A stretch of DNA of 1,549 nucleotides. It comes from a plasmid. The notes under the pieces are model-generated. The model saw only the letters and a program-made list of their open reading frames with translations. It was not told the origin of the DNA and ran no database searches. The DNA is taken from assembly GCF_988243305.1 (NCBI RefSeq), contig NZ_OZ547142.1; one strand, given 5' to 3'. This document shows positions 1 to 1,549 of the stretch, piece after piece. The first letter of the stretch is position 1, and the number at the start of each line of letters is the position of its first letter. The position numbers were made by a program, and so were the translations under genes.

Positions 1-196
1 CACTGGTCAACAAAGACGGTGATATTCAGCGCCGAATCATGGCCATGTTTTCAAATTGAGCTAGCGGCAGGCGGACAATCAGGGGCTACGTGTTAACGTT
101 CTGACCATGATTGTCTATCCTGCATTGCTCTTTTGCCGCCTCAAAATCCTTTGCGTGTTTTTGCTCCCCGTTCTCCAGAAAAAACCGAGCCGCCAC

Positions 197-250
197 GGTT
201 CCGGCAGCGCCTTGAGCGCTACCGGAAACCGTCTGGGGAGAACCCCAGAC
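197..250 (+). other. Two adjacent GC-rich hairpins in the non-coding region
   Basis: Hairpin A: TTCCGGCAGCGC (199-210) pairs with GCGCTACCGGAA (216-227), 11/12 with a C205/A221 mismatch, loop 211-215. Hairpin B: GTCTGGGG (231-238) pairs perfectly with CCCCAGAC (243-250), loop AGAA. Confidence 0.5.
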
Positions 251-326
251 CCCCATCGCTGCAACACCGACGGTCTACGACCACCTACCAACCGCATGGC
301 TGCCTGTTCCGTGCAAATGGGCTTTG

Positions 327-350
327 CAGGGGGCTGGCGCGGTTCCTGGC
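327..350 (+). other. Candidate ColE1-type origin motif (G-run plus GGTTCCTGGC), i.e. possible RNA primer to DNA transition region
   Basis: CAGGGGGCTGGCGCGGTTCCTGGC shares CAGGGGG and the 10-mer GGTTCCTGGC with the pMB1 ori region (...GTCAGGGGGGCGGAGCC...ACGGTTCCTGGCC...) in the same orientation as the two stronger matches downstream. Spacing differs from pBR322, so this is tentative. Confidence 0.25.
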
Positions 351-524
351 GACCTGAAAGCCCCTGGTTAGGGGTATCGGCGCGCTTGACCTCCTGAGAG
401 CCTCTGTAAGCGTTTTTCGCGCCTTCCATGCCCTGGCGGGCATCTAAAACCCGTTTCGTGCGTCTGAGAGCTTTTGAGCGCGTTTGAGGGGCTATCTGGC
501 GACTCATCCCCAAAAGAACAACAC

Positions 525-558
525 CGGGATCACAGACAACATGCGAGAGGTGATCCCG
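525..558. other. Hairpin (9-bp stem, 16-nt loop) abutting the conserved backbone segment
   Basis: CGGGATCAC (525-533) pairs perfectly with GTGATCCCG (550-558). Confidence 0.5.
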
Positions 559-626
559 CTCGCCGCAAGTCGATGACCGAGCGTAGCGAGCGAATCGACG
601 AGGAAGCGGAAGAGAACCGGAAGCCA
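551..626 (+). other. Conserved ColE1-family origin-distal backbone segment (region where pMB1-type plasmids carry primosome assembly sites)
   Basis: TGATCCCGCTCGCCGCAAGTCGATGACCGAGCGTAGCGAGCGAATCGACGAGGAAGCGGAAGAGAACC aligns by eye at about 75% identity to the reverse complement of the pUC/pBR322 stretch ...CTTCCGCTTCCTCGCTCACTGACTCGCTGCGCTCGGTCGTTCGGCTGCGGCGAGCGGTATCAG... That orientation is RNAII-sense. Confidence 0.55.
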
Positions 627-680
627 CATTGAGCACTTACGCACTGATGCGGGGTGTCGGGGTGAAGCCCTGACCAAGTG

Positions 681-727
681 GTAATCGTATCGGCGTGCAT
701 GCGCGGTTATACGATTACACATCCTGT
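681..727 (+). other. Perfect 10-bp inverted repeat followed by a CATCCTG|T motif (IncP/MOBP-type nic consensus YATCCTG|Y); candidate relaxase recognition site
   Basis: GTAATCGTAT (681-690) and ATACGATTAC (709-718) are perfectly complementary, with an 18-nt spacer containing GCATGC. CATCCTGT at 720-727 begins 2 nt after the proximal arm, putting the putative nick (726/727) 8 nt from the repeat. An 8-mer of this kind can occur by chance. Confidence 0.3.
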
Positions 728-839
728 CCCGATTTCTGAGGCGTTTTAACGGTGAACGGACGGCAAAAACACGATGGAGCTGTTGAACGTGAAAACCACG
801 AAATCTGGCAAAAATCACGGCTGGCGAGGCTTGCATAGG

Positions 840-902
840 TGTAAGCCAGTATACACTCCGCTATCGCTACGTGACTGGGTCAGGGCTTCGCCCCGACACC
901 CC
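840..902 (-). other. ColE1/pMB1-type bom (oriT) nic region homolog; predicted nick on the minus strand
   Basis: The + strand GCCAGTATACACTCCGCTATCGCTACGTGACTGGGTCAGGGCTTCGCCCCGACACCCC (845-902) is near-identical to the pBR322 bom segment as I remember it (GCCAGTATACACTCCGCTATCGCTACGTGACTGGGTCATGGCTGCGCCCCGACACCC). The complementary strand carries ACTGG|CTTA, which I recall as the ColE1 nic sequence; this places the nick between the complements of 846 and 845. Confidence 0.6.
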
Positions 903-904
903 CA

Positions 905-933
905 AAGGGCGTTGCGTGCAACGCAACGCCCTT
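905..933. other. Perfect hairpin / 29-bp near-palindrome (13-bp stem, 3-nt loop) at the module junction
   Basis: AAGGGCGTTGCGT (905-917) pairs base-for-base with ACGCAACGCCCTT (921-933), loop GCA 918-920. No U-tract follows on either strand (GCCTAGAATAG on +; TGGGGGTG on -), so it is not a canonical intrinsic terminator. Confidence 0.6.
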
Positions 934-935
934 GC

Positions 936-997
936 CTAGAATAGATCTTTTACGCCGATTTGTAAGTGGTTGTTTTTTTAGTGTGTTTTTTATTTAC
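936..997. other. AT-rich tract with T-runs between the GC-rich backbone and the operator sites
   Basis: Sequence GATCTTTTACGCCGATTTGTAAGTGGTTGTTTTTTTAGTGTGTTTTTTATTTACC has T7 and T6 runs. Composition changes abruptly here relative to upstream. Confidence 0.5.
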
Positions 998-1046: not shown

Positions 1047-1048
1047 AC

Positions 1049-1063
1049 GCAACAAGGTGTTGC
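1049..1063. other. Short hairpin (6-bp stem, 3-nt loop) overlapping the putative -35 hexamer
   Basis: GCAACA (1049-1054) / AGG loop / TGTTGC (1058-1063), perfectly complementary arms. Confidence 0.4.
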
Positions 1064-1131: not shown

Positions 1132-1549
1132 ATGTTTATTGATTCAGAAAAACGACTGAAACAACTTTCAGATGAGGCAAAGAAAAACACCGAGGATCTC
1201 GAAGAAGCAAAGAAAAATTCAAGGTTTACACAGGTATCCCCAAAAGGTTGGGAACGTGTTCGAGAGCTGCTGAAGGATAGCCAAGGCATATCAGCACTGA
1301 AGCTGTACTCATTTTTAGCGGAGCATATCGATCCTACGTGTGGCGCTGTCGTTGCGGATCAGCAATTCCTAGCTGAAAAACTTGGAGTTAGCAGAAGCAC
1401 AATTATTCGGTGGCTCAATTACTTAGAATCAAAAAATGCATTAGTTAGAATCCCCGTTGCTGGTAAGGTTTGTGCGTATGCCCTCGATCCACATGAAGTC
1501 TGGAAGGGATACAACACTACGAAAAACCATGCAGCGTTTGTCACTAAAA
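1132..1549 (+). CDS. Partial ORF (3' end beyond window) encoding a winged-helix DNA-binding protein with RepL-like replication-initiator architecture
   Basis: ATG at 1132 is the first start after an in-frame TGA at 1090-1092 and is preceded by AGAGGGA at 1118-1124. 139 codons read without a stop to the window end, which is presumably why it is absent from the ORF track. Translation begins MFIDSEKRLKQLSDEAKKNTEDLEEAKKNSRFTQ (charged, K/E-rich) and continues ...ISALKLYSFLAEHIDPTCGAVVADQQFLAEKLGVSRSTIIRWLNYLESKNALVRIPVAGKVCAYALDPHEVWKGY. The helix-turn-helix followed by G-x-hydrophobic-x-A-L-(N/D)-P-x-E pattern matches my recollection of staphylococcal pSN2-type RepL (Pfam RepL family). Family assignment is from memory, not a search. 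Confidence 0.6.
   Translation, partial: MFIDSEKRLKQLSDEAKKNTEDLEEAKKNSRFTQVSPKGWERVRELLKDSQGISALKLYSFLAEHIDPTCGAVVADQQFLAEKLGVSRSTIIRWLNYLESKNALVRIPVAGKVCAYALDPHEVWKGYNTTKNHAAFVTK

Follow-up and report, generated by a model that had tools for sequence, protein, structure and literature searches.

A GC step in a pKL1-type plasmid as the probable joint between a transfer-site cassette and a RepA/oriV replicon

Overall organization of the plasmid

The window, that is, the whole 1549-bp stretch of DNA analysed here, is a complete circular plasmid and comprises (i) a GC-rich non-coding cassette with two putative transfer origins and (ii) a replicon module with a palindrome, an AT-rich tract, operator repeats, a leader of ~85 nt and repA (Table 1). 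More than 300 PLSDB records of ~1549 bp match the window end to end at 99.5-99.7% identity. pKL1 of E. coli KL4 (NC_002145.1), a natural plasmid of 1549 bp (PMC12839544), shares with the window not only its length but also the order of the elements, RepA and the perfect 16-bp inverted repeat upstream of it; a gapped comparison of the two plasmids discloses 12 differing positions, all of them non-coding, with identical RepA proteins; a small number of them are base changes or indels located in the cassette. In pKL1, oriV is located upstream of rep; it has been described as containing several Rep-binding sites along with an IHF box and an inverted repeat of 16 bp that matches perfectly (PMC3832669). 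With a RepA-type initiator and an oriV carrying the 16-bp repeat, both recognised from the sequence, the window belongs to the family of small RepA/oriV plasmids of which pKL1 is the prototype.

At least 80% of the plasmid is held by 290 of 5426 complete E. coli genomes and some part of it by 1320, with 26 of the 2181 matching places being chromosomal. As for the cassette, window 60-540 is covered to at least 80% by ~480 records. In addition, a record labelled Corynebacterium renale (NC_004833.1, 1488 bp) shows 100% identity over 115 nt to the oriT allele of pJJ1886_1 (L003), and both Staphylococcus and Corynebacterium are also listed as hosts of matching plasmid records; these Gram-positive-labelled records are probably E. 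coli contaminants or mis-assignments.

Table 1. Coordinates of the features in the 1549-bp window
Feature	Position	Strand	Remarks
repA, 3' part	1-59	+	reads through the arbitrary position 1 of the circle; stop codon at 57-59
Cassette	58-906	none	GC 0.573; ~850 bp; non-coding, portable; carries cis-acting DNA-processing sites
Stretch shared with an IncX4 plasmid	396-611	none	79% identity to pE110019_33 (L012 6001-6216), ~650 bp upstream of its rep gene
ColE1 pas-like stretch	542-622	none	78% identity to ColE1-type plasmid L009 1020-1100, 80 nt before the L009 oriT
R64 / I-complex (IncI, IncK) type oriT, predicted	650-735	+	97.7% identity to IncK2/Z plasmid NZ_CP075634.1 (L011); without relaxase
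Conserved ~27-nt block, left copy	651-679	+	GGGGTGTCGGGGTGAAGCCCTGACC; outer repeat; kept in all five aligned oriT sequences
Inverted repeat with 19-bp arms	681-718	+	repeat A equivalent; predicted NikA-binding arm beside the nick
Nick region	719-731	+	ACATCCTG/TCCCG; predicted nick 726/727, 8 nt past the repeat
ColE1 bom-type oriT, predicted	842-908	-	98.5% identity to L009 1181-1246, including GTATACTGG/CTTA
Conserved ~27-nt block, right copy	878-905	-	outer edge is the cassette end
Palindrome	905-933	none	perfect 13-bp stem, 3-nt loop; GC 0.62; first element of the replicon side
Replicon module	907-1549 plus 1-57		GC 0.43
AT-rich tract of oriV	937-996	none	GC 0.27; conserved in the divergent pABU lineage
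RepA operator/oriV repeats	999-1046	none	including perfect 16-bp inverted repeat 999-1014 / 1029-1044
repA, 5' part	1132-1549	+	codons 1-139 and first base of codon 140

The replicon module

The only consistently annotated gene is repA, a 477-nt HTH coding sequence of 158 aa with a GC content of 0.43 and a GC3 of 0.40, annotated in L001, L002 and L019; its product matches Pfam HTH_36 at 1.5e-8 and, weakly, RepL. The same protein (WP_000469298.1) is carried by pKL1, pO26-S1 and pJJ1886_1. The promoter scan gave no sigma-70 consensus site for repA.

Upstream of the gene, the sequence TGTCGCATCCTGGATG at 999-1014 is exactly complementary to 1029-1044, in agreement with the 16-bp inverted repeat described for pKL1 (PMC3832669). 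Positions 1009, 1016 and 1034 were noted here: the two CATCC-N-GGATG operator palindromes have their centre bases swapped in comparison with pKL1 (T/A at 1009, A/T at 1034); pJJ1886_1 displays the pKL1 arrangement at these operator centres, another flip at the centre of a palindrome. The search for an IHF box returned one match to WATCAANNNNTTR with one mismatch, located in the AT-rich tract (963-975, minus strand), at least one such match being found in 137 of 200 shuffles.

The palindrome at 905-933 is a candidate for a RepA site or for a structural boundary of oriV. Among the relatives it occurs with the loop in both orientations and with a compensatory C-G/T-A change in the stem: the loop (918-920) reads GCA in the window and p9-09-02E and its reverse complement, TGC, in pKL1, pO26-S1 and L001, whereas the stem pair 910:928 is C-G in the window and pO26-S1, T-A in p9-09-02E and a C.A mismatch in pKL1, L001 and L003, so that the stem is perfect in the window but not in pKL1. 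No exact match to window 880-960 was found among 338 records. These variants look like the outcome of quasi-palindrome template switching or of selection for symmetry. The palindrome was also considered as an intrinsic terminator and rejected, the scanner not calling it and no T-run following it on either strand.

The heptamer ACGCAAC occurs three times, at 911-917 (minus strand), 921-927 (plus strand) and 1047-1053 (plus strand), that is, in the arms of the palindrome and just past the operator repeat. Three copies were reached in only 2 of 200 shuffles, and the heptamer is a possible RepA half-site, which would connect the palindrome with oriV. In the pABU lineage, whose RepA is 78% identical, another palindrome is found at this position and unrelated repeats stand in place of the operator repeats, a pattern that would fit a co-evolving initiator-operator pair within a conserved origin architecture.

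The transfer-site cassette

A protein-coding role for the cassette was considered and rejected. The ORFs at 107-397 (plus strand), 115-636 (minus strand) and 504-836 (minus strand) returned no match in the Pfam search, and single-base indels at 179, 568, 583, 702, 742 and 764 in close relatives (90-98% identical) frameshift every annotated cassette ORF. The public annotations 'hypothetical protein', 'replication protein' and 'rep protein', at 107-397 (plus strand), 504-629 (minus strand) and 115-636 (minus strand), are probably spurious.

The stretch 650-735 resembles the oriT of R64 and the I-complex. Its counterpart in NZ_CP075634.1, a conjugative plasmid, is located ~15 nt upstream of the mobA(nikA)-relaxase genes, and the stretch also aligns with nikA-proximal DNA of IncI-gamma/K1 plasmids (L020, L021), where the genes are annotated as IncI1-type NikA and NikB; in all three helper plasmids the match ends ~15 nt before nikA. 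The nick region ACATCCTGTCCCG is invariant in the window, in L003 and in the three helper plasmids. The position of the nick, 726/727, is our placement from the R64/RP4 literature; according to Furuya and Komano, repeat A reportedly lies 8 nt from the nick in R64-type oriTs. The nick region, the repeat A equivalent at 8 nt and the homologue upstream of nikA-nikB would together identify 650-735 as an R64 / I-complex type oriT, presumably a functional one. As single-stranded DNA, 645-740 folds with a z of -3.05 against shuffles. The window and the R64 / I-complex oriT of the nikA-nikB leader have in common the outer block, the invariant nick region CACATCCTGTCCCG and an inverted repeat whose end is 8 nt short of the predicted nick, but the I-complex oriT adjoins nikA/nikB and the window copy is detached from both.

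The cassette is itself mosaic, the stretches 558-607 (pas-like) and 658-757 (R64-type oriT) each occurring as two alleles ~75% identical. The two-allele stretches sit inside an otherwise 90-98% identical cassette (L003-L006). The arms of the inverted repeat at 681-718 co-vary with the helper lineage, the window corresponding arm for arm to IncK2/Z and the L003 allele to IncI-gamma/K1, with the nick region unchanged; the two oriT alleles suggest that helper specificity could be switched by allele replacement. A reading of 681-718 as a cer/Xer multimer-resolution site was discarded, because the 15-nt spacing of the arms is unfit and the stretch proved to correspond to the I-complex oriT.

The second putative transfer origin, at 842-908, aligns with a segment of L009, a ColE1-type plasmid encoding Rop, MobC, MbeB and MbeD, that sits between the pas-like stretch and rop/mobC in that plasmid. 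In line with the ColE1 literature, the minus strand is predicted to be nicked within GTATACTGG/CTTA, between 846 and 845. L009, L018, L005 and L008 all retain the motif GTATACTGGCTTA of the window, and ~1800 plasmids of ColE1 size share with the window only 842-908. Its homology to the oriT of a ColE1-type mob plasmid, nick motif included, would qualify the stretch as a bom site, likewise presumed to be functional. The single-stranded folding of 830-936 yields z values of -4.5 to -5.3 against shuffles, with the palindrome supplying much of the signal. The two oriTs converge, and on the nicked strand one copy of the ~27-nt block comes ahead of each; 651-679 and 878-905 therefore form an inverted repeat, one being the inverted duplicate of the other.

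Only the bom-type stretch and 542-622, a putative primosome assembly site in view of the pBR322/ColE1 sequence, align to L009. The likeness to the bom region of ColE1/pMB1 extends over 67 nt (98.5%, including GTATACTGGCTTA), with the pas-like stretch upstream in the same order; the spacing between the two differs, comprising ~220 nt in the window, where the R64-type oriT is located inside, and 80 nt in L009. On the other hand, ColE1/pMB1-type plasmids have an RNAI/RNAII origin, rop and mob genes, and the window lacks all of these: a scan of the window against Rfam at E<=1 returned no RNAI nor any other family, the sole match being a chance one to UCA1 (E 0.22). The ColE1 likeness is one of transfer, possibly of priming, and not of a ColE1 replicon. 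The term 'ColE1-like' used in the first-pass annotation is accordingly apt for the transfer origin and the pas-like stretch and inapt for the replicon, with neither RNAI nor rop present.

No relaxase gene is encoded among the ORFs of the window, as judged also by Pfam. With two recognisable oriTs and repA as the only supported gene, the window would by its sequence fall into the pOriT class, the relaxase-less plasmids mobilised by way of a borrowed oriT that were described, together with the R64-like and ColE1-like oriT families, in a survey of E. coli plasmids (Ares-Arroyo et al., PMC10123127). According to this survey, multiple oriTs are present in ~12% of the plasmids that carry any. The absence of mob genes and the presence of two oriTs on a very small plasmid are also features of pEC156, whose F-type and R64-type oriTs are both functional (PMC4743918). 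Nevertheless, pEC156 is a ColE1 replicon, whereas the window combines RepA/oriV with convergent R64-type and ColE1-type oriTs and, unlike pEC156, displays the same 27-nt block before each oriT.

The stretch shared with pE110019_33 (396-611) possibly has a role in priming. The overlapping segment 390-530 was considered as a structured single-strand initiation signal and rejected, its ssDNA fold being no better than those of shuffles (z +1.0). A hairpin-forming element of 55-60 nt (GACAATCAGGG...CCATGATTGTC) lies at 73-133, at the left end of the cassette; two inverted copies of it flank the replication region of the IncX4 plasmid (L012 476-530 and 8372-8432), and window 60-185 (plus strand) folds as ssDNA with a z of -2.9. 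In addition, several cassette segments (window 52-136, 192-240, 547-650 and 651-767) are found in rearranged form beside a copy of IS26 at positions 1657-3309 of the IncF plasmid p2005FS026 (L013, 150 kb); they appear to be a captured and scrambled small plasmid of the pKL1-cassette family.

The compositional break and the homology joints

The first-pass annotation had flagged an abrupt compositional break at 890-960, citing G+C counts of 40/60 at 181-240 and 24/60 at 1141-1200; the counts are exact, and a likelihood scan placed the best single change point after base 936, with the positions within 2 LLR units (916-959) lying inside the flagged range. The GC content is 0.568 to the left of this point and 0.423 to the right, and the LLR of 15.8 compares with values from 500 shuffles that average 2.5 and never exceed 8.7. 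A uniformly heterogeneous replicon, which would have made the break unremarkable, is not what was found, because each half by itself shows only a weak further GC break (LLR 3.8 and 3.5, respectively). Since the window is the whole circle, a circular fit with two breakpoints was also run, giving a GC-rich arc at 185-936 (0.590, against 0.435 elsewhere) with an LLR of 18.7 versus a maximum of 9.5 in 40 shuffles.

The relatives define the joints more sharply than composition does. Pairwise mapping places them at 57/58 and 906±2, the former being a second joint that exists because the window is circular. Four plasmids, namely (i) L005, of 1506 bp and encoding a 146-aa protein, (ii) L007, a Shigella plasmid of 1778 bp, (iii) L008, of 1843 bp and encoding a RepL-family protein, and (iv) pMG828-1 (L023), have window 55/58-905/907 in common (84-97% identity) and can no longer be aligned just beyond it. 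At the right joint the relatives all read ...CCCCGACACCCCAAA and then differ; at the left joint the common sequence opens with GAGCCAGCGGCAGG, right at the stop codon of repA.

A comparison of 3-mer composition among all splits of the circle of the same size gave the largest contrast with a start at 56-66 and an end at ~903-913 (L1 distance 0.44, median 0.315), and this best split, in keeping with the k-mer analysis proposed with the first-pass annotation, coincides with the homology boundaries 57/58 and 906/907. The GC-optimal left boundary (185) is 127 nt off the homology boundary at 58, and composition alone therefore does not trace the module exactly. On the right side, homology breaks off ~30 nt before the GC change point is reached, because the GC-rich 29-nt palindrome sits on the replicon side of the joint. 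The proposal that the switch coincides with the end of ColE1-like homology stands in so far as that homology ends here, L009 matching 842-908 at 98.5% and diverging completely thereafter; the joint itself, however, is at 906 and not at the GC minimum, with the GC step ~30 nt rightward.

Separate histories of the cassette and the initiator

The identities of the cassette and of the initiator are strongly incongruent. Compared to the window, (i) L008 has a cassette with 97.2% nucleotide identity and an initiator with 42% amino acid identity to RepA; (ii) pMG828-1 shows 91.8% and 45%, respectively; (iii) L005 shows 83.8% and 30%, the latter over 54 residues; and (iv) L010 carries a partial cassette (85%) and an initiator with no detectable similarity. 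Conversely, RepA homologues occur without the cassette, as in L015 (67% amino acid identity) and L016 (66%, with a MobV relaxase in place of the cassette), or with only a part of it, as in L014 and L018 (72-74%), where the ColE1-type oriT alone is present and ends at 902-908; a 1306-bp plasmid with a RepA homologue lacks the cassette. This distribution, with cassettes of 84-97% identity across plasmids having divergent or undetectably similar initiators, and RepA homologues with the cassette missing or partial, bears out the earlier suggestion that modules of different evolutionary origin have been joined.

pGZM7k (L017, NZ_CP129290.1, 3146 bp) is a natural heterodimer that combines a 1506-type and a pKL1-type plasmid in the order 146-aa initiator, cassette, pKL1 oriV-repA, cassette. 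Its initiator modules are kept apart by two copies of the cassette, with identities to the window of 99.2% and ~94%; from this structure it follows that plasmids of this sort recombine by way of the cassette that they share.

The incongruence bears directly on an explanation in which the plasmid is a single co-evolved replicon, the GC step reflecting function only and not separate evolutionary origins. Functional constraints do contribute to the GC contrast: the stretch with the lowest GC content, 937-996 (0.27), is an AT tract of the origin type, and the GC3 of repA is 0.40. Moreover, the initiators of L008 and L023 are distant RepA homologues (42-45%), so that the rep modules are divergent members of one superfamily and not wholly unrelated, and part of the pattern could come from rapid rep divergence beside a conserved cassette. 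Nevertheless, the cassettes are 92-97% identical where the initiators are 42-45% identical, the flanks are unalignable right after the fixed joints, and RepA homologues occur with no cassette at all. The single-replicon explanation is largely refuted by this incongruence, and we consider it improbable.

Origin of the GC step

The GC step is best explained as the physical joint of two modules of pKL1, a transfer-site cassette and a RepA/oriV replicon, a reading to which we assign a probability of about 0.88. The cassette would let a plasmid too small to encode transfer proteins be mobilised by a co-resident relaxosome of the IncI/IncK or ColE1 type, and since no relaxase is encoded, it would work only with NikA/NikB or ColE1-type Mob proteins borrowed from co-residents. 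The replicon module would supply RepA-dependent replication, and the two may have been joined through recombination of co-resident small plasmids. The compositional step would be a by-product of a GC-rich array of hairpin sites set beside an AT-rich origin: the GC content of the cassette is raised by its many GC-rich hairpin-forming repeats, inherited from enterobacterial transfer regions, and the origin tract and the low GC3 of repA make the replicon AT-rich.

Beyond the existence of a joint, the cassette could be a discrete mobile unit without genes, bounded at 57/58 and 906, which some site-directed mechanism transfers from one small replicon to another, unrelated one. Candidate mechanisms would be the action of a relaxase or a switch of template at the conserved block of 27 nt. 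The constancy of the joints and the location of this block at the right end are suggestive of such an actively mobile module. The outer edge of the block coincides with the right joint, and its sequence is similar to that of the CloDF13 nic site, GGGTG/GTCGGG; however, the joint is ~10 nt from the CloDF13-like GGGTG/TCGGGG motif (PMC5935869), and no recombination site was identified at the left joint. Site-directed movement of the cassette seems to us doubtful.

A quite different explanation inverts the roles of the modules, the GC-rich arc being a true ColE1-like, RNA-primed replicon and the side of the HTH protein an acquired regulator or accessory module. MOB-suite does give the replicon label Col(MG828) to plasmids that share the cassette only, and the ColE1 pas-like stretch lies inside the cassette. 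However, RNAI and all other Rfam families are missing at E<=1, as is rop; every cassette-bearing plasmid examined has an initiator-like gene; the 1306-bp plasmid has a RepA homologue and no cassette; and the oriV of pKL1, with its Rep-binding sites, was placed upstream of rep (PMC3832669). This inverted assignment is very unlikely. Finally, a chance fluctuation, for which only the small size of the window could be invoked, is already refuted by the excess of both LLR values over their shuffled maxima (15.8 versus 8.7 and 18.7 versus 9.5) and by the coincidence of the break with independent homology joints, and its probability is negligible.

Implications for plasmid typing and mobility

The MOB-suite/PlasmidFinder label Col(MG828) appears to follow the non-coding cassette and not the initiator. 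It is given to plasmids with other initiators (L005, L008, L010 and L023), including the name-giving pMG828-1, and is not given to RepA homologues that lack the cassette (L014-L016); from these comparisons of sequence and label, the Col(MG828) marker would have to lie within 184-736. Because the label appears to follow the cassette, replicon-based epidemiology could lump together plasmids with different replication systems, and if the cassette is a mobile module, the Col(MG828) type would track the cassette and not any replication function.

Both the plasmid and the phenomenon, that is, modular small plasmids and relaxase-less oriT plasmids, are already known, pKL1 reportedly having been studied since the 1990s. 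There is little new in mechanism, and the practical value of the finding is modest but real: the mobility of the common pKL1-type plasmids probably depends on a co-resident helper of the IncI/IncK or ColE1 type.
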